This document shows positions 2,819-14,517 of a stretch of 17,495 nt of DNA, one piece after another. The number at the start of each line of letters is the position of its first letter. Position 1 is the stretch's first letter. The notes beneath the pieces were generated by a model. That model saw nothing but the letters and a program-made list of their open reading frames with translations. It ran no database searches and was not told the origin of the DNA. The DNA lies in UHGV virus genome UHGV-0117107; one strand, written 5' to 3'. The DNA comes from a virus. A program made the position numbers and the translations under genes.

Positions 2819-4237
2819 TTACAGTAGCTCGTTAACTCGATCCTGAATTTTCTGAATCATGTTGTGATCGTATCCAGCTTTTGCGAGGGCATTAATTCGT
2901 GCATCTCCATTACCGTATTTTCCGGCAATGACATCACGGGCTACATTATCAATCACTATCTGATTTACTTTCTTCTGCACAGTGTCTGGATTATAACCAG
3001 CTTTCTTGAGAGCAGACACACGAGCATCACCATTACCCCATTTACCGGCGATTACTTCTTTAGCAATTTCATCGATAGATTTGGTCGGTTTTGGCGTAGA
3101 TGTAGGTTTAGATGTTGGTGCTGGTGTGGAAGAACTTTTCGCATATTTTGGTCTAGCAAAACCACGAATCATACCCCAGCCAACCGGAATGGTACGTCTT
3201 GCTACTGCTTCTCCTCTGTTACCTTCAATCGCTGTGATTTGTCCGTTTGAAACAGATTCCACATACCCGATATGATCAGAATATCCGTCGTTTGGCTGAG
3301 TCTTATCATCCCAGTTATAAACAATTACATCACCAGGTTTCGGAGTAATGGTGCCGTCCTCGACCCAAATGCCTTTCTGCTTAAAAATCTTAATATGTTC
3401 CTCACAACCAACTTCTGTACCGATGAGATCGACTGCTCCGGATTTGATAGCTGCTGCTGATACTGTACAATCACACCATTCATCATTAGGTTTAATAGCG
3501 TATCCGCGAGCCAAAGGTTTGTGAGAATTATAGATGTTAAGAATCTCAATATATTTACCGTTAGCTTCAGAATAACCGAGCCAACTTCTCATAACATTAA
3601 GAACGTCCTGTGCTGTTACACCCAATTCCGTATCCTCCTGTTTTCCGTAAAAATAGTTCATGTCGACTTTACCTTTAATACCGCCTACAGTTCCGGAACT
3701 CGTATACTGATGAACCAAACAACCGTAATCTGCTTTTCCGTTATAATCAGCGAGCCAGAATTTGTACTGTTTAATCAGATCATGATTATACCAATTTCGA
3801 TAGTAGTCGATATTTGCGTAGATTCCAGCTTTGTATCCCTGAGATTCTACGTACTCACAAAAGATTCTTGTAAAGTTATTACATTCATTTTTACCAAGTC
3901 TCACACCTTTTGCAGCTGCTTTCTTGACTGTGTCATATTCGAAATCTGCGAAGATGATTGTGTTTTTATCAAGACCAGCTTTTCTAACAACATCAACACA
4001 GAATTTTGCTTCGTCAAGTGCGCCCTGTTCGTTTAAGGCATAAATAAAATGGTAAGTTCCTATAATCGGAATCTTGTTGTTTTTACACCCATTGACATAC
4101 TCATAGAATTTTGAATCTACTGTCTTCCTGTAAGAAGATCTAAGAATCGCGAACTCTATTCCGGAGGACTTGACTTTAGAAAAATCTACATCTCCCTGCC
4201 AATAGCTGATATCAATTCCTTTCTTCACAATCATCAT
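2819..4237 (-). CDS. Modular endolysin: N-terminal GH25 muramidase, central CHAP/NlpC-P60-type cysteine peptidase, Ser/Thr/Pro linker, two C-terminal Cpl-7 (CW_7) cell-wall-binding repeats (472 aa)
   Basis: The GH25 signature GIDISYWQGDVDFSKVKSSGIEFAILRSS...DMNYFYG maps to about 3644-4225. The peptidase part has Cys in EWCDCTVSAAAIKSG, His in SDHIGYVESV and the motif AIEGN (about 3173-3625). The linker is SSSTPAPTSKPTSTPKPTKS. Two repeats of type VIAGK(W/Y)GNGDAR..AL.KAGY map to 2822-3076. The start overlaps the upstream stop (ATGA at 4234-4237). Confidence 0.9.
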   Translation of the reverse strand: MMIVKKGIDISYWQGDVDFSKVKSSGIEFAILRSSYRKTVDSKFYEYVNGCKNNKIPIIGTYHFIYALNEQGALDEAKFCVDVVRKAGLDKNTIIFADFEYDTVKKAAAKGVRLGKNECNNFTRIFCEYVESQGYKAGIYANIDYYRNWYNHDLIKQYKFWLADYNGKADYGCLVHQYTSSGTVGGIKGKVDMNYFYGKQEDTELGVTAQDVLNVMRSWLGYSEANGKYIEILNIYNSHKPLARGYAIKPNDEWCDCTVSAAAIKSGAVDLIGTEVGCEEHIKIFKQKGIWVEDGTITPKPGDVIVYNWDDKTQPNDGYSDHIGYVESVSNGQITAIEGNRGEAVARRTIPVGWGMIRGFARPKYAKSSSTPAPTSKPTSTPKPTKSIDEIAKEVIAGKWGNGDARVSALKKAGYNPDTVQKKVNQIVIDNVARDVIAGKYGNGDARINALAKAGYDHNMIQKIQDRVNELL

Positions 4238-4794
4238 CCTTTCGAATTGAATTTCTTTCTTCGAGCTGCATTCATTTCAGCATAACGACTCATTAATTCT
4301 CGCTTACTTGTCTGTTTAGGTGGCTCATTGTGAGCACTACATACCCTTATCAAAGTAATAAGTCTATTAAGATGCCATTTTTCACACTCAAATGGAATAT
4401 TGTTTGCAATCATCCAATAATATATAAGCTCTGACGTTATGATCTCTCGATTTTTCTTTCCAGATCTTCTGTCATTGATAGTAGTTGCTGTCATTGGAGC
4501 ATAAATATAGTCAGTTATTTGCTTTAAGTTATCTTCACTTAACCGACCATACACACTTGGATCAACATTCTTATTGAGTGTCATACACCTTATGTAATCT
4601 ATTGTTTCTTCAATGGTTTTCTCTTTATTTGTATAAAAAGGTTTACACCATTTTGATTCCCATTTTGAAAGAGAGATGAGTGAATGTTCTAATTGTAGTG
4701 TCTGCTCTTTCTGAGCTGGCACGGGTATAAACACTTGATTTCCTTCATCCCATAATTCGTCAGCTTCTCTAGCAGGTACTATAATCTGAATCAT
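4234..4794 (-). CDS. Hypothetical protein in the gpT / second tail-chaperone position (186 aa)
   Basis: It has its own SD GGAGGGATGAGTAATG. It sits directly after the chaperone-like gene. The basic C-terminus is RYAEMNAARRKKFNSKG. The function is inferred from position only. Confidence 0.4.
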   Translation of the reverse strand: MIQIIVPAREADELWDEGNQVFIPVPAQKEQTLQLEHSLISLSKWESKWCKPFYTNKEKTIEETIDYIRCMTLNKNVDPSVYGRLSEDNLKQITDYIYAPMTATTINDRRSGKKNREIITSELIYYWMIANNIPFECEKWHLNRLITLIRVCSAHNEPPKQTSKRELMSRYAEMNAARRKKFNSKG

Positions 4795-4823
4795 TACTCA
4801 TCCCTCCATTGTGTTCGAATTTA

Positions 4824-5237
4824 TTAAGCTCCTGGAAGCAGATTCTTTGAATTAGCTTCCTGTGCAACATCAGCCGGAACGATGCCGTTAATAAATGCCG
4901 CTGCTGCTTCTGCGTCTGTAGCAAGTTCCATGAAGAGTGTGGAATAAGCTTCTGTCTGTGAAAACTTTCTTGACAGTGGTCTTCCGTCCTCATCAAGTTT
5001 CATGAAACCTTTACCATCCGGAGCCTTTTCTCCATATGCTTTAAGAATAAGATCTTTAAAGATAGCTACGATTGTCGGAGTATCCTGTGCTGCCACGACT
5101 TTCTCAATCATCTCAGCGAATCCACCAACTGTAGATAATTCCATCTCCATAATTTCTGCTTTAGAAAGGTTGAAGTAATATGTATCTTCTCTTTCTACTC
5201 CGTTGTAATCTGTGTATTTAATAGCTTTTTTTAACAT
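4824..5237 (-). CDS. Putative tail assembly chaperone (gpG-position, 137 aa)
   Basis: SD AAAGGAGAACAACATG. This acidic small protein is the first gene after the major tail protein gene. The N-terminus KYTDYNGVEREDTYYFNLSKAEIMEMEL is typical of siphovirus chaperone families by eye. Confidence 0.55.
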   Translation of the reverse strand: MLKKAIKYTDYNGVEREDTYYFNLSKAEIMEMELSTVGGFAEMIEKVVAAQDTPTIVAIFKDLILKAYGEKAPDGKGFMKLDEDGRPLSRKFSQTEAYSTLFMELATDAEAAAAFINGIVPADVAQEANSKNLLPGA

Positions 5238-5333: not shown

Positions 5334-5999
5334 TTACGCACCTGTCGTAGTTTTCATCATAGTAGCAACCTCATCCGGGAGTGGAAGTCTTGCTTCTGTA
5401 TCCTCGTCACCGTAAAGAACTGCCTCCAGTGCTGCCAGTTTAGTTGGATCAGCTGTGGTAGAGTCGATTATGAGATGAGATGTAGGTTTGAAATTAGCTA
5501 CAGATACCGGAGTAGTACTACACTCCCAGGACATAGTAGCCGCTTCCGGACTATCATTTACAGTCGCACGAGATACTTCGGAAGGAGCTGCAAGAGCACC
5601 GTATACCAGATGCAGTTTGTAACCATGTGATTCGCCCTCTGTATCATTACCAATAAGGCTTCGATAAGATAAACCGAAATTTTTACGTTTCTGCTGTCCA
5701 ATCTTAACGCCGGTTGCAATTTCTCCTTCACCGTTACATTCTGCGAATTCATCGGGATACATATAAGCTTCGATTGTGAAACCAAATTCCTCAGCGGACA
5801 TAAGTGTCACATACTTAATGTTATCTGCATAGAGCGGTGTCGGTTCTGCTCCAGATGGTGATTCTGTTACAGCTGTAAGACCATTCCATGCTGCTCCTTT
5901 CGGATAGTTTCCATCAGTTCCCATTGGATAAATTACGCCATGATCGACGCCAGTTTCAAACAAACGTTCGCCTGTTGCGTCCCATACAAGTTTAGCCAT
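5334..5999 (-). CDS. Major tail (tube) protein (221 aa)
   Basis: SD AAGGAGGAAATCAAATATG. The N-terminus MAKLVWDATGERLFETGVDHGVIYP...AAWNGLTAVTESPSGAEPTPLYADN...EEFGFTIEAYMYPDEF matches by eye the widespread siphovirus major tail subunit pattern. The position before the chaperones and the terminator behind it fit an abundant product. Confidence 0.7.
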   Translation of the reverse strand: MAKLVWDATGERLFETGVDHGVIYPMGTDGNYPKGAAWNGLTAVTESPSGAEPTPLYADNIKYVTLMSAEEFGFTIEAYMYPDEFAECNGEGEIATGVKIGQQKRKNFGLSYRSLIGNDTEGESHGYKLHLVYGALAAPSEVSRATVNDSPEAATMSWECSTTPVSVANFKPTSHLIIDSTTADPTKLAALEAVLYGDEDTEARLPLPDEVATMMKTTTGA

Positions 6000-6653: not shown

Positions 6654-8399
6654 TTAGGCAGTTTCTTTCACGAATTCAAGAGCTACTGCGGAATACGGTT
6701 TAACAAGTGTACCGGAGCAACGTGTCTCCATAAGATACTTCTGCTTGTTGTAATCGATATCGAAATCATCGAAGAAGTTGATTTCTCCACCCTTATCTGT
6801 ACCTACGTTGTAATCTTTAAGATTTACATAGATACCAGCAAGCTCATATGTCTTATTTTCATCGTCTGTTCTTGTAAGACCTTCCATTACCGGAACCGGA
6901 ACGATTTCTCTTACGCGAAGAGATGCTGCAAGTTTCTGTACGCTATCATAGATAACACGTCCGTTTGTATCTTCAATGAGCAAGCAATCTGTAAGCATAT
7001 CCTCAGACATGAACATATCAGGGTTGCCAGATCCTTTATAATTCTTTCTGGATTTGATGCAAGCTTTGATGAATGCCTTAGCTTTCTCTTCAGCAGTAGC
7101 GGAATCGCTTACATTGATAGCTGCTTTAACTGTGAAAAGATCTTCCATCTTCCAGATAGGTCTGATGCAGTCCTCATTGATTTTATCGTTAGCCTCTTCA
7201 ACCGGATCTCTTCCATCACCGATAAGGAATGCGCGAGCAAGTTCCTCATCAAGCATCATACGAACTTCTCTCTTCAGCCATGGAAGAATATCGAAATCTG
7301 TAATATCAAGCATGTCATCGCGATCTAATGCCTGTTTCTTGTATACAGTTGTTGGATTTGTTACACGTTTGAGAAGCTTAAATACTTCTTCAATTTTAAG
7401 TTTGCCTTTCTGGTATCCCTTTGCTCTAGCCTGTGCTGCTGTGATGTCAGCAAAGATAGTTTTGATACGGGAGAACGGTGTGTGATGTACTCCGCCAAGT
7501 ACTTTTGATACCCAATCGTCATTACGTTTGATAAATTCCGGTTCATTGTTAAGATTCTTTGCATCCGGGAATAAGATGTCAATGTCTGTGATACCATGAG
7601 CAAGCACTGCCTCTTTAAGAGAACCTGAGCGTTTCGCATCTTCGAAAATCGCAGTCATCTCGGAGTGTGTAAGCACATCATCTGCCATAGGGGTTTCATT
7701 GTCGAATACGTTGTGTTTCATATTTTTGTTTCCTCCTTCATTTTCATCATCTTCTTCGGTTTCAACACCAGCATCTTCTAATGCCTGTCCGATCATAGCG
7801 TACACAACAGTTTTCTGTTTCTCAGAAAGAGTGTTGAATACATCAGCTACAGTTTCGTCCTTATTTTCTTCGGCATTATGTTTTTTGGTTTCTTCTGCCA
7901 TTTTTTCTTCTCCTTTCTCAGAAGTATCTGCGTGGAACAATGACTCCACATTTTCGATATATTCGCCTGAGCTGATATATCCCTCTTCATAAGAATCTTC
8001 GCCATGCATCATGACAGACTCTATTACTGCGCCTGGATTAGCACCAGCTAAAACCAAACTAAGCTCACGAATGACTCCGTGAACTACATTACTTCCCTGC
8101 TGTTTAAGTCTGTTGGCATATATGGAAAATCTATTCACATCACCATGCTGAACCAGCAATTTAGCATTCTGCCCTGATTCCGTATCGTTAAATGTGCAAT
8201 ATGCATACACACCTTCGTCCCTGTTTTCCAGCAAGGCATGACCGAGCACTTCATCTACGCTATTATGCTGATGATTCCAAACTAACGGTACAGTTTCACC
8301 ATCGCACTCTTTGAATGCATCTTTCATGATGACTCTACCGTCCGCACACAGCATGTCAGCTTTAGTAGCCCAGCCAGAACAATCATATGACTTAGCCAT
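6654..8399 (-). CDS. Prohead serine protease (HK97/S78 family) fused in frame to HK97-fold major capsid protein (581 aa)
   Basis: The N-terminal 135 aa or so carry S78-like motifs (VPLVWNHQHNSVDEVLGHA, RFSIYA, ELSLVLAGANPGA). An acidic linker spans roughly aa 136-226. The C-terminal 355 aa or so look like a capsid protein (ELARAFLIGDGRDP, the position, the size). SD AAAGGAGGCAGAAAATCAAAATG. Confidence 0.8.
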   Translation of the reverse strand: MAKSYDCSGWATKADMLCADGRVIMKDAFKECDGETVPLVWNHQHNSVDEVLGHALLENRDEGVYAYCTFNDTESGQNAKLLVQHGDVNRFSIYANRLKQQGSNVVHGVIRELSLVLAGANPGAVIESVMMHGEDSYEEGYISSGEYIENVESLFHADTSEKGEEKMAEETKKHNAEENKDETVADVFNTLSEKQKTVVYAMIGQALEDAGVETEEDDENEGGNKNMKHNVFDNETPMADDVLTHSEMTAIFEDAKRSGSLKEAVLAHGITDIDILFPDAKNLNNEPEFIKRNDDWVSKVLGGVHHTPFSRIKTIFADITAAQARAKGYQKGKLKIEEVFKLLKRVTNPTTVYKKQALDRDDMLDITDFDILPWLKREVRMMLDEELARAFLIGDGRDPVEEANDKINEDCIRPIWKMEDLFTVKAAINVSDSATAEEKAKAFIKACIKSRKNYKGSGNPDMFMSEDMLTDCLLIEDTNGRVIYDSVQKLAASLRVREIVPVPVMEGLTRTDDENKTYELAGIYVNLKDYNVGTDKGGEINFFDDFDIDYNKQKYLMETRCSGTLVKPYSAVALEFVKETA

Positions 8400-8438
8400 T
8401 TTGATTTTCTGCCTCCTTTTTAATTAACTTAAACTGCA

Positions 8439-8705
8439 TTAAACCGAAGCAGTGAAAGTAACAGCTGTTGAACTTCCATCACTAGCGATAAGACCAGTAG
8501 ACTTAAGGCATACCGGTTTGTAATATGTATCTGTCATGTAAACAGTTACTCCTTTAAGGAATAACTCCTGGAGATCTTCCTTCATGACTTTCTCCGCTTT
8601 TGCTTCCTTATCGTAGAACAGAACTTTTGAAGAATTTGCATATAAAACAACTGTTTTTACAAACTTTTCATCATATGCTGCATTAACTGTTTCTCTTTTA
8701 GCCAT
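8439..8705 (-). CDS. Hypothetical small protein after portal (88 aa from ATG at 8705)
   Basis: The track ORF extends to 8774 and would overlap the portal gene. The internal ATG at 8705 has SD GGAGGAAAATAATTATG and removes the overlap. No family was recognised. Confidence 0.5.
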   Translation of the reverse strand: MAKRETVNAAYDEKFVKTVVLYANSSKVLFYDKEAKAEKVMKEDLQELFLKGVTVYMTDTYYKPVCLKSTGLIASDGSSTAVTFTASV

Positions 8706-8748
8706 AATTATTTTCCTCCATTTGTTAATAATGTGTATTGTTTCACAA

Positions 8749-10020
8749 TCATAGGTCCGAAATTGGTGTGTCACCTAATGAGGGTTCTTCCTCTGGTGGA
8801 ATATCTTCTTCACTTATATCCGGAGTTGGATTCAATCCAGTTCCTGTTTGATTGATGTTGCTATTTACTAACTGGTCAGCTTTTGGATCATCTGATGGTT
8901 TCATACCAATAATCTGTCGAACCTCATTAGCTGTAAGTATTTCATTCTGCGTAAACACTCCAGCGATTTCAGCCAGTTTACTAAGAGGAACGAGTCTAAA
9001 CGAATCTCTGAAGAATTTGATAGTCTGATTCTGAGATCGTGCTGTCTTTGTTAAAAACTTGCGTTTCATCTCATCGACGATTGCTGCGACAATTGGCTCA
9101 ATAGTCCTTGAATAGTAGTTCAGCATTTCTTCTTCGCTCGCTGATCCATCGAGTATCGCCTGTGTGATTCCAAGCTGGCTGTATAGTTGAGCAGTTAGAT
9201 ATTCCACTTGTTTCATCAGGTTATTGTCGAGAGGTCTGTTTAACTGCACTATCTTTTCAGTTCCATCAACATAGCCAATACCGTAAGTGGAACCGCTTAG
9301 CTGTTGCTCCAGGTCCGCACGTCTTTCATTAGCTAGTTTTCGCCGAGCTTCAGATTTAATAGAATATGGTAGCTGAATAATCATGTCCAATTTTCCACTA
9401 CTGATACGTTCGTCCATTCTATCGAGAAGGGCAAGTTTTCGCGTAAGACGCTGCATGGTAGAATTATGCTCATTGATAACCGCATATAAAGGATTCTCAA
9501 CTATAGCTACCATTTTCTTTTCAAGCTTAATGTCTTCTCGTTCTCCTGTTCGTTCATTGTAAACTCTAACTTTCACATGGTTTGGATACCATTCAAGAAT
9601 TTTACCAGTTCGCATGGAAAGTATTTTATATGATTCAGTTTGAGATGGATCTATATCTGTATCAACAGGAACTATTGCTACACAGCCCTCGTCAAGCATA
9701 GACATAACGATATCTTGTGTGAATGCTCTACCAGTCTGATCGATATTCGCTTCAAGATTCAGACATTTATTAAGAGTCGAATCAATCTTTTCTATAAATC
9801 TACCGTTACTGTCTATACGACAGTGATTAATATTTATAGAAGAGACATCCAAAGCTATTCGATTAAAAATAGCAGTAACAACAGATCGCTCATTACCCCT
9901 AGTGAATCTCGGCCTATCCGGTCTATTTGAATATCCTGGACCAATGTTACGAGAGTCATATGTCGGATCTCGGTTCATGAAAGCATTCCACGAATGCCGA
10001 AGTCTATCTATAAAATCCAT
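8749..10020 (-). CDS. Portal protein (423 aa)
   Basis: SD GGAGGTAAAATCAAAATG. The call rests on size, position downstream of terL and upstream of protease/capsid, and a C-terminal region (NEILTANEVRQIIGMKPSDDP) followed by an acidic tail, as in many portal proteins. It is positional plus weak motif evidence. Confidence 0.65.
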   Translation of the reverse strand: MDFIDRLRHSWNAFMNRDPTYDSRNIGPGYSNRPDRPRFTRGNERSVVTAIFNRIALDVSSININHCRIDSNGRFIEKIDSTLNKCLNLEANIDQTGRAFTQDIVMSMLDEGCVAIVPVDTDIDPSQTESYKILSMRTGKILEWYPNHVKVRVYNERTGEREDIKLEKKMVAIVENPLYAVINEHNSTMQRLTRKLALLDRMDERISSGKLDMIIQLPYSIKSEARRKLANERRADLEQQLSGSTYGIGYVDGTEKIVQLNRPLDNNLMKQVEYLTAQLYSQLGITQAILDGSASEEEMLNYYSRTIEPIVAAIVDEMKRKFLTKTARSQNQTIKFFRDSFRLVPLSKLAEIAGVFTQNEILTANEVRQIIGMKPSDDPKADQLVNSNINQTGTGLNPTPDISEEDIPPEEEPSLGDTPISDL

Positions 10021-10034
10021 TTTGATTTTACCTC

Positions 10035-10631
10035 CTATGGTGTTGATGGATTAAGACTTTCAGCGATTTTAGCGTCTATGTATGAATGTATTTCAGCTAT
10101 ATCCGCTTCCGTCCAATAATCAGTACCTCTGACAGGTGTCTTCCCATCAGTACCAGGATCTCCTTTTGGTCCAGCATCACCAGTATCACCTTTTGGTCCC
10201 TGAACACCCTGTTCACCTTGAGGTCCGGTTAATCCTGTATCTCCCTTTGGACCCTGAATACCTTGTTCACCTTGAGGTCCAGTAGCTCCGGTATCACCTT
10301 TTGGTCCCTGGATACCCTGTTCACCTTTCGGGCCTGTAGCTCCGGTATCACCTTTCGGACCTTTAAGACTAGCTAACCATTCAGTCTCGCTTCCTTCGAA
10401 ACCAGTAGAAAGCGCTACTTGATAAGCAGAATCACCTGGATCTCCTTTTTCACCAGGAGGGCCAGGAGTGGTTGAACCAGTTCCTCCGTTAGTAATGAGC
10501 TCGCATAATTCCCAAAGCAATTCTTCAGCTCTAGACTGAGGTCTCGGCAATCCTTCAGTACCTTTCTGTAAGATAGTATTTTTCATATATTCTTCAAATC
10601 TACTATCCGGTATGTATGTTTCATCGATCAT
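10035..10631 (-). CDS. Collagen-like triple-helix repeat protein (198 aa)
   Basis: There are four G-X-Y triplets at aa 57-68 and 25 uninterrupted G-X-Y triplets at aa 91-165 (GPKGDTGATGPKGEQGIQ units). Between them is SAYQVALSTGFEGSETEWLASLKG, a motif common in phage collagen-like fibre proteins. A short non-collagen C-terminal domain follows. SD AGAGGTGACAAAATG. Confidence 0.85.
   Translation of the reverse strand: MIDETYIPDSRFEEYMKNTILQKGTEGLPRPQSRAEELLWELCELITNGGTGSTTPGPPGEKGDPGDSAYQVALSTGFEGSETEWLASLKGPKGDTGATGPKGEQGIQGPKGDTGATGPQGEQGIQGPKGDTGLTGPQGEQGVQGPKGDTGDAGPKGDPGTDGKTPVRGTDYWTEADIAEIHSYIDAKIAESLNPSTP
10137..10361 (-). repeat. Imperfect 54-bp tandem repeats (about 4 units) encoding the G-X-Y tract
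   Basis: The DNA units ggtatcacc-tttnggncc-ctgna(t/c)accctgttcacct(t)-nggncc-ngtnnn recur with 54-nt periodicity across 10137-10361. Confidence 0.8.
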
Positions 10632-10649: not shown

Positions 10650-10895
10650 TTAGAGTTCAATTCCTTCAATGGCTGCTCTTACCTCAAGACATCTGAGATA
10701 CTCGCCCATGTAACGTTTCTGCTCCTGAAGTTTTGCTATCGGGCAAGTTGGTTTGAAGTCGAGAACTCCTGCTTCATGTTTTACAAGCATCTGATGTAAT
10801 TTGTCATATCGAATCTTTGTCTGATAATACTCAGCTTTAAAACGATCTTTATAATCGGAACTATTCATAAGTTCAATCGTGTCTTTTAACTCCAT
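10650..10895 (-). CDS. Small helical hypothetical protein (81 aa), resembles the widespread crAss001_48-related family
   Basis: SD AAGGAGGTAAATTCAAAATG. The sequence pattern is DYKDRFKAEYYQTKIRYDKLHQMLVKHEAGVLDFKPTCP...LQEQKRYMGEYLRCLEVRAAIEGIEL. The family assignment is from memory only. Confidence 0.45.
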   Translation of the reverse strand: MELKDTIELMNSSDYKDRFKAEYYQTKIRYDKLHQMLVKHEAGVLDFKPTCPIAKLQEQKRYMGEYLRCLEVRAAIEGIEL

Positions 10896-10915
10896 TTTGA
10901 ATTTACCTCCTTATC

Positions 10916-10984: not shown

Positions 10985-12718
10985 CTATTCAAAAGCATCC
11001 TTGTTCAGTTTATAAGCAACGAACGCATCCATAAGTGCTGCAACGCAGTCAATCTTATGCTCTCGTTTGCGTTTATAAAGTTTTCTGTTACCGTTGGTGT
11101 CTTCAAGGGTGATACAGTTTCCCATAGCAAACGACATGATCTCTTCATCGAATCGAAGCATTCTCTCTTCAGAAAGGTTCTTTAATTCTCCAAGAGGAAT
11201 AGATTCTGTCTTTGCTCCCTGAATTACTTTCTCAATACCAAACGGACCATTCTCGGTTTCCCATCTATTAACAAATTCCTTTGCTCCATACGGGTCAAAG
11301 CCGAAACACCGAACATCGTAATCACTATCGATAATATGTTTATCCAGATCGTCGTAAACTTGCATCATATCGAGGATCGCACCGTCGAGAACTATCAAAC
11401 TACCTTCATTCATAAACTGATCGTATTTCGTCCGCATAGCTGCTGGTAATTTCATCAGAGTTAATGAAGAAATATAGTTTCTAGTCTTAATACCGAACGT
11501 TCCATCCTGTAAAGGGAACATAAATGAGAATGAGCAAAAGTCGTCTCCCTGCGATAAGTCTGCTCCCATAGCACAAGGTAATCCCCAGTAATCTCTACGT
11601 CTATGAGGTATTGTCTCTTCATAAGTAAAGTAATAGGTATAACCTTCCAACGGGATTCCAAATCTTTTCGCAAGAATATCGTTCTTTGCTGCTGGGTTCT
11701 GTTCGGCTCTTTCCACGTCAAGCTGATATGCTTCAGGGCTAACGGTCTTTCCAATATTCGGATTAGCCTTAAGCCACATTTCTGGATTTCCTACTTCCTC
11801 AATATCATCGAGCTTATACCACCAGATTGATACGTGAGGATTAGTGTACTCGTCTCGAAGAATCTTAGATAATTCCATTTTGATTGTGTCGCCGCTACCA
11901 TTTCGTACAGTACCTTCTGAACTGGTTGCCACAATAAGATAATCATCATTTTTTGAGGCACCCTGTTCAACAGCACCAACGACGTCTTCTCGTACATCTC
12001 CTGATAGCCATTCATCTATAGTGGAGATCTTATCTCTTCGTGACTGCAATTTATCGATGGACATTGGTAGAACTTCGATTATTGAATTTGTAAGGAAGTT
12101 CTCTACACCCTTTTTCGTACTAGCTAACTTCTGTCGATTCGCCCTTGAGCCTGTAGTATTCTGTAAAGAGCCCTCTGTTAAGAATTTAAACAAAGGACCT
12201 CTAGCTCTTGCTATAGCTGTACGAATAGGAGCTAATGTTGCTTCTGATTGTCTCATTGTCGGCGCGGTTACTAATTGCTGAGTAGTACTCGTGTCGACAT
12301 TTAAAAAATAAGCCTGAATACATGCCGCATACATCGATTTAGCAGCACCTCTGGCTACGATCAAATACTGTTTGTTAACCAGTCGTTTCTTAATTCTCTT
12401 GGTAACATATCGTCCTTCGTCGTAGTCATAGACTGATCGTTCAACGAAGTAATACCAACCGAAAATCTGTTCCGCCCAAAGTTTAAACGAATCAAGTAAA
12501 TGTAGATCTTCGCCATCAGTTAATGTGAGTTCGTTCTCACAATAATTAATAAAACCCTGGATCGCTTGGTCGTCATACCAAATTCCAGGGTTAGCTATAA
12601 GATCATCTATTCGATTCATCTCCATCGAGATTTCTTTACATATTGGGATTTCTCCTCGCATGACCGCCTCTCTAAAGCGGCCGTAATATTTCGGAACAGC
12701 CGTGTTTGAAAGACTCAT
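10985..12718 (-). CDS. terL: Terminase large subunit (577 aa)
   Basis: It has a Terminase_1-like layout with a Walker-A-like LIVARGAAKSMYAA, an ATPase N-half and a nuclease C-half. Size and position upstream of portal fit. SD AGGAGAAAAACATCATG. Confidence 0.9.
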   Translation of the reverse strand: MSLSNTAVPKYYGRFREAVMRGEIPICKEISMEMNRIDDLIANPGIWYDDQAIQGFINYCENELTLTDGEDLHLLDSFKLWAEQIFGWYYFVERSVYDYDEGRYVTKRIKKRLVNKQYLIVARGAAKSMYAACIQAYFLNVDTSTTQQLVTAPTMRQSEATLAPIRTAIARARGPLFKFLTEGSLQNTTGSRANRQKLASTKKGVENFLTNSIIEVLPMSIDKLQSRRDKISTIDEWLSGDVREDVVGAVEQGASKNDDYLIVATSSEGTVRNGSGDTIKMELSKILRDEYTNPHVSIWWYKLDDIEEVGNPEMWLKANPNIGKTVSPEAYQLDVERAEQNPAAKNDILAKRFGIPLEGYTYYFTYEETIPHRRRDYWGLPCAMGADLSQGDDFCSFSFMFPLQDGTFGIKTRNYISSLTLMKLPAAMRTKYDQFMNEGSLIVLDGAILDMMQVYDDLDKHIIDSDYDVRCFGFDPYGAKEFVNRWETENGPFGIEKVIQGAKTESIPLGELKNLSEERMLRFDEEIMSFAMGNCITLEDTNGNRKLYKRKREHKIDCVAALMDAFVAYKLNKDAFE

Positions 12719-12761: not shown

Positions 12762-13334
12762 TTAACGACCATAACGAGCATTGTTCAATATTCTTGACAC
12801 ATAGGTTCGTCCAGTCTTTTTGTATGCTTCTTGAGATTCGAGCAACATAGCATCTGCCTTATCAGATAATCTTGAAGCATCTTCGAACATTTTATTATAC
12901 TCCTTAGCATCTGCTGTTTTGTTCTGTGCAGAAGCTATAAATCTTGAAACTGCGTTTTTACCAAGTTTCTTGCGCTGCTCTTTAACCTGATTCCACTTTG
13001 CATCAGCAACATCACTAGCTTTTGATGCTGCATCAACCTTTTTAGAATAATCTTTTACTGCTGATTTTTTGGCATCTACTTTCGCTTTCTTTATGTCGGC
13101 TTTTGCTTCTCTTAAAGAAGCCTTAGCTGCATCTCTTTGGATCTTATTACCTTTTCGAATAGCTCCAATACCGTTCAACTGACCAGAATTCCTAGCTGCT
13201 TTACGAGCTTCTAATCCATCAGCTCTGGCTTTCTTAGAGGCTTGTCTAAAGGTCGGCTGATCGCTTCTCCTTCTAACTCCCCACTTCATGCCTTTTACAC
13301 CGTAGTGCATTAATTTGTCATCATAGTATCCCAT
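12762..13334 (-). CDS. Paralogue P4 of the YHxGxKGxKWGxRR family (190 aa): N-terminal module plus Lys/Ala-rich predicted helical region
   Basis: The N-terminus is MGYYDDKLMHYGVKGMKWGVRRR. SD AAGAGGTGAAAATTCAAAATG. The rest is highly basic (AKADIKKAKVDAKKSAVKDYSKK). The C-terminal KKTGRTYVSRILNNA resembles TKGREYASRMLETT in P1. Confidence 0.7.
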   Translation of the reverse strand: MGYYDDKLMHYGVKGMKWGVRRRSDQPTFRQASKKARADGLEARKAARNSGQLNGIGAIRKGNKIQRDAAKASLREAKADIKKAKVDAKKSAVKDYSKKVDAASKASDVADAKWNQVKEQRKKLGKNAVSRFIASAQNKTADAKEYNKMFEDASRLSDKADAMLLESQEAYKKTGRTYVSRILNNARYGR

Positions 13335-13363
13335 TTTGAATTTTCACCTCTTATCTCAAATAG

Positions 13364-14500
13364 TTATGTGTTCCCGGACAGCATCCCAATGATTTCTCTA
13401 TCCGATAGTTTCGTGTTCGGATGTTGTTTACGATAATTATTTATCGCTTTTGTGTTAAAAGCATATGATACTCCTACTGGAACAGTTGCTCCCAAAGCAT
13501 ACGTAGCTCCCTTTTTTGAGCCAGTTATTATTTTGTTGACGTAGTCTTCAGCTTTCTGTATTTTCTTAGCTTGATCAAGATTCTTTGAAATCTCATCAAC
13601 CGTTAATTCTCTAAAATTAGTTACAGAAATCTTTCCTTTCGCATCAAATACTATGAGAGGATTTTTTGTCTTGTAGTCATTAAACTTCATATCGTTAATG
13701 TCTTGAATAGCATTATATCCTTTTGATTTCATAGCACTATAAAATGTTTTGGATGAATATGAATCATGATTCCCAGCTAATTTAGAATTGAAATTTTCAT
13801 ACAGTTTTGATAACTCACTATCTGTATACGTTCCGAATTTAGCAAATCTTATAGGCTTTTCATTCGAACTTATAGAGCTTGGTAGATTATGTACATACTC
13901 TGCGAACTTTTTATCATTCTTATAAAGATCTTTGAATACTTTCTTCGCATTATTCTTAGAAGCAACTTTGACATCATCTTTAACTAATAAAGACATCACA
14001 TATGCTTTTCCAGTCTGTTGATATCGTTCTCTACCAAGTTTACCTGCATATTTTATGTTATCGGTTTTCTTGTATGAAGCGAAGAAATTATCGTATAACT
14101 TTCCTCCGGTATCTTTCATCTCTACTCGTTGCAACAACTTTCCAGACTTTATAGTTTTATCACAGTAATCTTTAATGTACTTATTTGTTGCATATGCAGC
14201 TATCGAAGCAACTGTGATACCGGCTGTTATGGCTATGATTTTCTCAGTTTTGATACGTCTATCAGCCGCCATCTTAGCCTGTTTAGGACTCATCCCTTTG
14301 CTAATATACTTAGATTCAATCCTCGATCTGTGACTCGATCTATTTGTGCTCTTATCGGATTCGTTTTGGTATTTATTCTTTCCAGCATTAGTGAGAGAAC
14401 CGTCTTTATTTTGGTAACGTCTTATTCCCCATTTCATGCCTTTTACACCGTAATGGTAGAGTTCATCTGTAGAAGTTATTCTTGAAATTGCATACTCCAT
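13364..14500 (-). CDS. Paralogue P3 of the YHxGxKGxKWGxRR family (378 aa): N-terminal module, one hydrophobic helix, C-terminal domain shared with P2
   Basis: The N-terminus is ...TDELYHYGVKGMKWGIRRYQNKDGSLTNAGKNKYQ. The hydrophobic segment is IIAITAGITVASIAAYA (aa 88-104). C-terminal motifs FYSAMKSKGYNAIQDINDMKF..YKTKNPLIVFDAKG align with P2. SD AAGAGGTAGGTGAGTCAAAATG. Confidence 0.7.
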   Translation of the reverse strand: MEYAISRITSTDELYHYGVKGMKWGIRRYQNKDGSLTNAGKNKYQNESDKSTNRSSHRSRIESKYISKGMSPKQAKMAADRRIKTEKIIAITAGITVASIAAYATNKYIKDYCDKTIKSGKLLQRVEMKDTGGKLYDNFFASYKKTDNIKYAGKLGRERYQQTGKAYVMSLLVKDDVKVASKNNAKKVFKDLYKNDKKFAEYVHNLPSSISSNEKPIRFAKFGTYTDSELSKLYENFNSKLAGNHDSYSSKTFYSAMKSKGYNAIQDINDMKFNDYKTKNPLIVFDAKGKISVTNFRELTVDEISKNLDQAKKIQKAEDYVNKIITGSKKGATYALGATVPVGVSYAFNTKAINNYRKQHPNTKLSDREIIGMLSGNT

Positions 14501-14517
14501 TTTGACTCACCTACCTC

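Follow-up and report, generated by a model that had tools for sequence, protein, structure and literature searches.

How does a phage that makes its prohead protease and its major capsid protein as one polypeptide avoid making one protease for every coat subunit? The question is raised by the minus strand of UHGV virus genome UHGV-0117107, a stretch of 17,495 nucleotides (nt) that we refer to as the window, in which positions 6654-8399 hold a single open reading frame (ORF) of 581 amino acids (aa) that runs from an N-terminal protease through a linker into a capsid domain. We suggest that the answer lies within the gene itself. On comparative grounds it is likely that this fusion gene is translated from nested in-frame starts that set the protease-to-capsid ratio, and capsid subunits with and without the protease are probably both made from it. 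The original prediction, drawn from the letters of the window, was that two in-frame ATG codons in the linker, M167 and M227, could yield capsid products without the protease. For M227 this is strongly supported by a family-wide pattern of ATG, GTG or TTG, together with a Shine-Dalgarno (SD) sequence and an unstructured ribosome-binding site (RBS).

Protease, linker and capsid in one frame

The elements of the gene, all on the minus strand, are listed below in the order in which they would be transcribed.

8412-8416, minus strand: SD sequence GGAGG serving the 5' start, 12 nt ahead of the ATG at 8399-8397; anti-SD pairing -12.2 kcal/mol
6654-8399, minus strand: protease-linker-capsid ORF, 581 aa, 65.2 kDa; ATG at 8399-8397, stop codon TAA at 6656-6654
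7995-8399, minus strand: prohead serine protease domain (S78 / assemblin fold), aa 1-135
7929-7940, minus strand: L154-F-H156-A157, candidate cleavage site; first of the conserved [LIVM]-x-H-[SAG] motifs downstream of the protease domain
7899-7916, minus strand: internal start site 1 (M167); SD AAAGGAG at 7916-7910, 8-nt spacer, ATG at 7901-7899
7767-7856, minus strand: conserved helical linker module, aa 182-211, ETVADVFNTLSEKQKTVVYAMIGQALEDAG; family-wide, candidate scaffold- or delta-like element
7719-7739, minus strand: internal start site 2 (M227); SD GAAGGAGGA at 7739-7731, ATG at 7721-7719
7662-7673, minus strand: L243-T-H245-S246, a motif of the [LIVM]-x-H-[SAG] type; predicted maturation cleavage
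6657-7664, minus strand: predicted mature HK97-fold major capsid protein, S246-A581, 336 aa, 38.1 kDa

That an S78 protease, an acidic linker and a capsid-like domain share one frame had been read from the sequence, and profile searches agree. In Pfam, Peptidase_S78 (PF04586) matches aa 17-94 with 27.6 bits against a cutoff of 21, and Phage_capsid (PF05065) matches aa 358-575 with 24.5 bits against a cutoff of 24.2; the PHROG 3270 profile spans aa 2-576 of the ORF (E 9e-216), and the linker, aa 136-226, has an isoelectric point of 4.16. The ORF belongs to PHROG 3270, the family of protease-major capsid protein fusions. S92 and H107 of the protease domain are invariant, and H43/H45 are at least 90% conserved. 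An AlphaFold model of moderate quality (mean predicted local distance difference test score 58) is ordered over aa 1-117 and disordered over 118-182 and 211-243, with a helical pair at aa 184-209 and helices at 245-267 before the capsid body. Foldseek relates the capsid part to the HK97-fold capsids of E1004, HRP29, T7 and T5 (E 1e-5 to 1e-3) and the N-terminal part to the herpesvirus (KSHV) protease and the T4 gp21 protease, while a sequence search of the PDB with the family profile returned zero matches. The gene order in the window, portal, fusion gene, a small DUF7253 gene and major tail protein, is that of annotated relatives.

The family is large. A tblastn search of 50,697 phage records matched 246, each of them over 80% or more of the query at a single location, and their hosts include Arthrobacter, Gordonia, Streptomyces, Rhodococcus, Lactococcus and Faecalibacterium. 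Many of these records are annotated "major capsid and protease fusion protein", in keeping with the earlier statement that such fusions are annotated in some phages, and Klyczek et al. 2017 describe the protease-capsid fusion as "an unusual feature" (PMC5513430). When 1.84 billion cluster representatives were scanned with the capsid part, 1,008 clusters were found at E <= 0.001, and nearly all of the best 150 of these are 550-1,084 aa long and hence fusions. By this count the fusion family comprises about 1,000 clusters at 50% identity, with hosts in Actinobacteria and Firmicutes. Gut metagenomes are the source of the nearest relatives, of which many share bins with Clostridia genomes and one sits inside a complete F. 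prausnitzii chromosome. The window gene is 35-63% identical over at least 97% of its length to the PHROG 3270 fusions gp12 of Arthrobacter phage Circum, gp21 of Gordonia phage Pherobrine, gp026 of Rhodococcus phage ReqiPoco6 and those of FP_oengus and P118, which likewise follow the portal gene and precede the DUF7253 gene and share the same internal start; the sub-clade of the window differs from them by an additional, second internal start at M167. The PHROG 3270 records whose gene tables were inspected each give a single coding sequence with no nested product annotated.

Conservation of the internal start codon at M227

Both internal ATGs and their SDs lie exactly where they had been predicted. 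Initiation at M167 would give a product of 415 aa (46.9 kDa) and initiation at M227 one of 355 aa (40.3 kDa). At site 2 the distance from GGAGG to ATG is 10 nt, and its predicted likeness to other starts of the operon holds, as these are spaced by 8-12 nt. The two internal sites rank second and third in anti-SD pairing (-13.7 and -12.4 kcal/mol) among the 122 internal in-frame ATGs of the 20 minus-strand ORFs of the window that were treated as genes. Because the linker is purine-rich, this ranking alone is weak evidence, and the decisive evidence for internal starts is comparative.

A first alignment of 44 IMG/VR homologs has a hypervariable linker, rich in insertions and deletions, in which the M227 column is nearly all Met, with two Val encoded by GTG. 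Among 150 representatives with mutual identity below 50%, the Met is in most the third residue ahead of N230, an invariant Asn; Val stands at site 2 in about 12 and Leu or Ile in two or three, and in about 20 the Met is displaced by a few residues (up to six). The DNA of nine Val cases reads GTG in 9/9, and that of the Leu case reads TTG. With the addition of 160 genome and metagenome loci, 218 non-redundant genes with DNA were reached, and their site-2 codons are as follows.

ATG three codons before N230: 170 genes
ATG shifted one or two codons: 9 genes
GTG: 37 genes
TTG: 2 genes
No start-capable codon: 0 genes

The other single-nucleotide neighbours of ATG (codons for Ile, Thr, Lys and Arg, and CTG for Leu) are never the site-2 codon in these 218 genes. 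A second set of 144 IMG/VR loci has ATG in 123, GTG in 14 and TTG in 2, with one locus misaligned; the four that carry a non-start codon (GTA in three, ATA in one) all have ATG as a neighbouring codon. Cultured phages follow the same pattern, with ATG in ReqiPoco6, Circum, Pherobrine, Rima and Qui, GTG in Faecalibacterium phage FP_oengus and TTG in Lactococcus phage P118.

The choice of valine codon is telling when set against valines elsewhere in the same proteins. Among the other Val codons of the 37 GTG genes, GTG makes up 28%. Among 11 homologs that carry Val, with mutual identities of mostly 40-53%, the site-2 column reads GTG in 11/11, whereas nine other conserved Val columns read GTG in 17/95 and use all four codons. 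On an approximate tree at least 18 independent switches from ATG to GTG or TTG are required, and GTG is kept within all-GTG clades that have diverged to 53-77% identity. All of this takes place in a disordered and otherwise hypervariable linker. A structurally required methionine would be expected to give way to Ile or Leu in any codon and at a fixed position; this is not seen, which favours a start codon, and comparison across the family strongly supports M227 as a real initiation codon.

The surroundings of the codon point the same way. Pairing of the SD upstream of site 2 averages -11.2 kcal/mol over the 218 genes and is -8 or stronger at 97% of sites. In a subset of 54 genes the site-2 SD averages -10.6 kcal/mol, against -11.1 at the 5' starts, and site 2 falls within about the top 4% of positions of its own linker. 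The mean 50-nt minimum free energy (MFE) at site 2 is -3.1 kcal/mol across the 218 homologs, versus -6 to -10 within 180 nt on either side, with the minimum of predicted mRNA structure centred about 12 nt upstream of the codon; in the window itself the 60-nt MFE around M227 is only -1.9 kcal/mol, the SD being unpaired and the region essentially unstructured. As judged by this conservation, the start codon, the SD and the open RBS at site 2 are shown to be under selection. At least 219 codons upstream of site 2 are open in frame in 209/209 genes with a complete 5' side, which means that the long form is under selection as well.

Proposed products, predicted processing and rival explanations

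The prediction for M167 held in part. In alignment A1, which holds 43 sequences of the gut clade, the site-1 column has Met in 24 and Val in 17, and the remaining two rows have a KGExxM motif slightly further downstream. In the sub-clade genes with DNA, ATG (8) or GTG (12) encodes the residue that follows the KG[DE]xx motif at 40-55 aa beyond the protease, one of the GTG cases (L049) falling in the helical module and not at site 1. An AAAGGAG-type SD precedes site 1 in the close relatives checked. This ATG/GTG pattern supports an internal start within the gut-phage sub-clade; many other clades of the fusion family have no such site, and M167 was therefore rejected as a family-wide feature. It is plausible, from these alignments, that M167 is a second start specific to the sub-clade.

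Exactly between sites 1 and 2 lies the helical module, with the consensus ETVxDVFxTLxExQKxVVYxxIGxAL. It is present in two copies in the close IMG/VR relatives L001 (3001-4950), L003, L008 and L048, and an 82%-identical homolog with the duplicated module is 650 aa long, against 581 aa in the window. Family members differ in linker length, from about 80 residues to more than 350, which together with the duplication indicates that the copy number of the module is evolutionarily labile.

The linkers also carry a recurrent motif that may be the protease's substrate. Among 604 His residues in 189 linkers, the next residue is Ser, Ala or Gly in 78%, and Leu, Ile, Val or Met stands two residues before in 89%, a neighbour bias that defines the motif [LIVM]-x-H-[SAG]. 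H156 is invariant in A1, a motif of this type lies 16-22 residues past site 2 in 189/189 homologs, and a further copy, L266-A-H268-G269, lies in the capsid N-terminus of the window protein. We infer that the protease cuts at these motifs and that maturation would leave a capsid protein of 38.1 kDa beginning at S246. If all products end with a single processed N-terminus, virion N-termini cannot show where translation started. Virion N-termini that match cleavage sites, and not Met167 or Met227, had been proposed as a refutation of internal initiation; this does not hold, as the conserved motif predicts a common N-terminus for all products.

Together these elements suggest the following mechanism. 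Translation from 8399 would give the 65-kDa protease-linker-capsid polypeptide and translation from M227 (7721) a 40-kDa capsid subunit free of the protease; in the gut sub-clade, M167 (7901) would add a 47-kDa form that keeps the helical linker module. Sharing the HK97-fold domain, all forms could co-assemble in one procapsid shell, the full-length subunits bringing the protease and the helical module to its interior, and the ratio of protease to coat would be set by the relative strengths of the RBSs on a single mRNA. The protease would then cut the linker at [LIVM]-x-H-[SAG] and every subunit at H245/S246, leaving one mature 38-kDa capsid protein regardless of the start used. The synthesis of the products, their ratio, their co-assembly, the cleavage sites and the scaffold role of the helical module are all inferred. 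A stronger version, to which we give slightly less than even chances, is that nested translation of this one gene supplies the protease (on the long form), a scaffold-like module (on the long and intermediate forms) and the coat (on all), such that no scaffolding gene is needed; it includes both stoichiometry set by the RBSs and cleavage at [LIVM]-x-H-[SAG] that erases the differences in the mature virion.

Several points weigh against nested translation. A change from ATG to GTG takes one nucleotide, and young Val lineages would inherit GTG by descent, so that the start-codon argument relies on divergent clades that retain GTG and on the absence of other substitutions. When the codons upstream of site 2 are shuffled synonymously, the SD averages -10.7 kcal/mol, against -10.5 observed (Wilcoxon p = 0.64). 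The idea that the SD is stronger than the peptide requires was rejected, there being no excess over the shuffles; the site-2 SD is written through amino-acid choice (E-E-G, E-G-G), and as far as sequence goes it is inseparable from a peptide-level constraint on that stretch. With no synonymous excess, the SD argument rests on position, on strength relative to the rest of the linker and on the start codon. Part of the dip in mRNA structure reflects composition, as GC content dips as well. The interior volume of the shell is, by our own estimate, compatible with subunits that are all full-length (about 10.6 MDa, similar to the scaffold load of P22), and an argument from capsid volume against such a shell was dropped on that account. 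No genuine split pair of protease and capsid genes, with the capsid start at site 2, was found among the homologs checked. Finally, the whole case is built on conservation.

Some of these points would suit a gene without any internal initiation, in which all subunits are 65-kDa fusions that trim themselves, and the Met together with E-E-G is a propeptide or a protease recognition element. Such a gene would have an SD no stronger than its amino-acid sequence dictates and a conserved cleavage-like motif just downstream of site 2, as is seen, and its all-full-length shell is physically possible. However, it does not account for a Val that is always GTG (37/37 and 14/14) and a Leu that is always TTG where other Val columns are mixed, nor for the lack of Ile and CTG-Leu, nor for a Met whose position relative to N230 varies, by one or two codons among the genes with DNA and by as many as six residues among the 150 representatives; the dip in RNA structure at site 2 is left unexplained too. 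We regard it as very improbable. Still less credible, indeed close to dismissible, is a reading of the internal SD-like sequence as a translational pause that gives the protease domain time to fold before emergence of the capsid domain: a strong SD-like sequence does lie within a long ORF at a domain boundary, but pausing needs no start codon 6-12 nt downstream, and no feature is conserved more strictly than the start codon.

A more serious competitor, though still an unlikely one, accepts internal initiation and holds that the full-length fusion is the main building block, as in HK97 gp5, with protease and linker acting as an oversized delta domain and the short product minor or auxiliary. 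The computed evidence is common to this reading and to the one we prefer. The inspected gene tables of relatives contain no separate scaffolding gene between portal and capsid, the conserved helical module is present in the long forms only, and the 5' and internal SDs are of similar strength, all of which would fit. Against it, the protease-bearing form is the minor one in both lambda C/Nu3 and herpesvirus UL26/UL26.5.

Three shorter gene calls were considered as split capsid genes and rejected: P0009 (356 aa) lies 122 nt from a contig end, P0029 (357 aa) is preceded by a frame-shifting run of N in its scaffold, and P0199 (344 aa) has loci 90-94% identical to it with long in-frame upstream ORFs. 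The contig of P0009 (HALL17-1...scaffold_76, 70 kb) carries locus L065, a 94%-identical relative that begins 121 nt before the site-2 ATG; positions 1-121 contain two in-frame stop codons within the helical module. These stops are either an assembly-end error or a natural variant that makes the short capsid product only.

Known systems, neighbouring genes and significance

Nested head genes are well known. In lambda C/Nu3 and Mu I/Z a long form with an N-terminal protease and a shorter in-frame product that starts internally are made from the same mRNA; their shared C-terminal module is the scaffolding protein, which takes the protease into the procapsid and sets its stoichiometry, and the coat gene is separate. 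The window gene follows the same nested logic, with an in-frame internal start codon and its own RBS on the comparative evidence, but here the shared C-terminal module is the HK97-fold coat protein and not a scaffold. By analogy, we regard it as working like C/Nu3 but standing outside that group. Herpesvirus UL26/UL26.5 likewise makes a nested, in-frame shorter product that is commoner than the protease-bearing form, and its protease has a related fold, as the Foldseek match to the KSHV protease indicates; the shared module is again a scaffold there and a capsid protein here. UL26.5 has its own promoter and transcript, whereas the window gene has no internal promoter signal: a UL26.5-like internal promoter was dropped as a candidate because promoter-like sites are not enriched, with 6 found and 7.0 expected.

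In HK97, the S78 protease gp4 precedes gp5, an HK97-fold capsid protein whose N-terminal part is removed, an order shared with the window gene. The delta domain there is about 100 aa long and the protease gene is separate, while the window gene has a 60-aa segment with the helical module between sites 1 and 2. A distant, unfused relative, Streptococcus phage Javan400 (L075 1447-3246), is 24% identical and has a capsid gene of 421 aa; its protease and capsid genes are adjacent and in the same frame, split by a single stop codon and thus one substitution away from a fusion. Whereas HK97 and Javan400 have separate genes, no stop codon interrupts any of the 209 family genes with a complete 5' side. 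Full-text literature searches found mention of the fusion and did not find an internal start in the fusion family, though an earlier description may exist elsewhere. As far as the literature found goes, the fusion itself and nested head genes were already known, and the comparative evidence for a conserved internal start is new.

The window also holds several observations on neighbouring genes and signals. The octamer TCAAAATG occurs in 12 copies, all on the coding strand, where 1.35 are expected and 0/200 shuffles reach 12. It forms the start codons of ORFs in 7/12 copies; minus-strand copies lie at 2801-2808, 8397-8404, 10018-10025, 10893-10900, 13332-13339, 14498-14505 and 16123-16130, with five others elsewhere. 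TCAAA directly precedes the ATG of the fusion gene in most homologs, including those of the high-GC actinophages Circum, Gordon, Pherobrine, Rima and Qui, and GGAGG followed by 8-12 nt ending in TCAAA and the ATG looks like an extended start context kept across host phyla. The small ORF between the portal and fusion genes (8439-8774, minus strand) is listed with a GTG start; an in-frame ATG at 8705 follows GGAGG (-9.3 kcal/mol), and the real product is probably 88 aa. Relatives carry a hypothetical gene of 164-259 aa at this place.

Further features, all on the minus strand, lie on either side of the capsid region.

2819-4237, minus strand: ORF of 472 aa, N-terminus GH25 muramidase-like by eye, C-terminus with repeats; an unusual location for a lysin, between tail-chaperone-like genes (4234-5237) and downstream tail genes
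10035-10631, minus strand: ORF of 198 aa, placed between the portal gene and the putative terminase region; contains a long collagen-like Gly-X-Y repeat (GPKGDTGATGPKGEQGIQ...)
12762-13334, 13364-14500, 14518-15576 and 15580-16125, minus strand: four consecutive genes with a common N-terminal motif, ...YHYGVKGMKWGVRRYQ..., and divergent thereafter

The counterpart of the muramidase-like ORF in the 94%-related L065 is 338 aa long, with hits to Glyco_hydro_25, CW_7 and LysM, and is followed by a 125-aa gene and a tape-measure gene. The four YHYGVKGMKWGVRRYQ genes form a tandem paralogous family adjoining the putative terminase ORF 10985-12718, and a similar motif, HYGRKGMKWG, lies within P0134, a 915-aa representative of the fusion family. 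ReqiPoco6 gene 029 (L067 4276-4875), three genes downstream of the fusion, is labelled 'head protein / major head protein', following Lactococcus phage 1706. The gene in the same position (5334-5999 in the window) is annotated as major tail protein in Circum, Gordon, Pherobrine, Rima and Qui, and the older 'head protein' label is probably wrong.

Hundreds of phages, among them SEA-PHAGES isolates from Arthrobacter, Gordonia and Streptomyces, dairy Lactococcus phages and abundant human-gut phages, have this gene annotated as one protein. If the internal start is used, the major capsid protein of those phages has a second, unannotated origin, and the predicted cleavage motif would explain how such a start escaped virion proteomics. 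The gene would be a clean system for asking how RBS strength within an ORF sets assembly stoichiometry, in culturable phages such as FP_oengus, Circum and P118. If our reading is true, it would give a simple and testable answer to how one protease per coat subunit is avoided, it would be the first nested protease gene whose shared module is the coat protein, and the protease-delivery logic of lambda, Mu and the herpesviruses would extend to the coat protein itself as the carrier.

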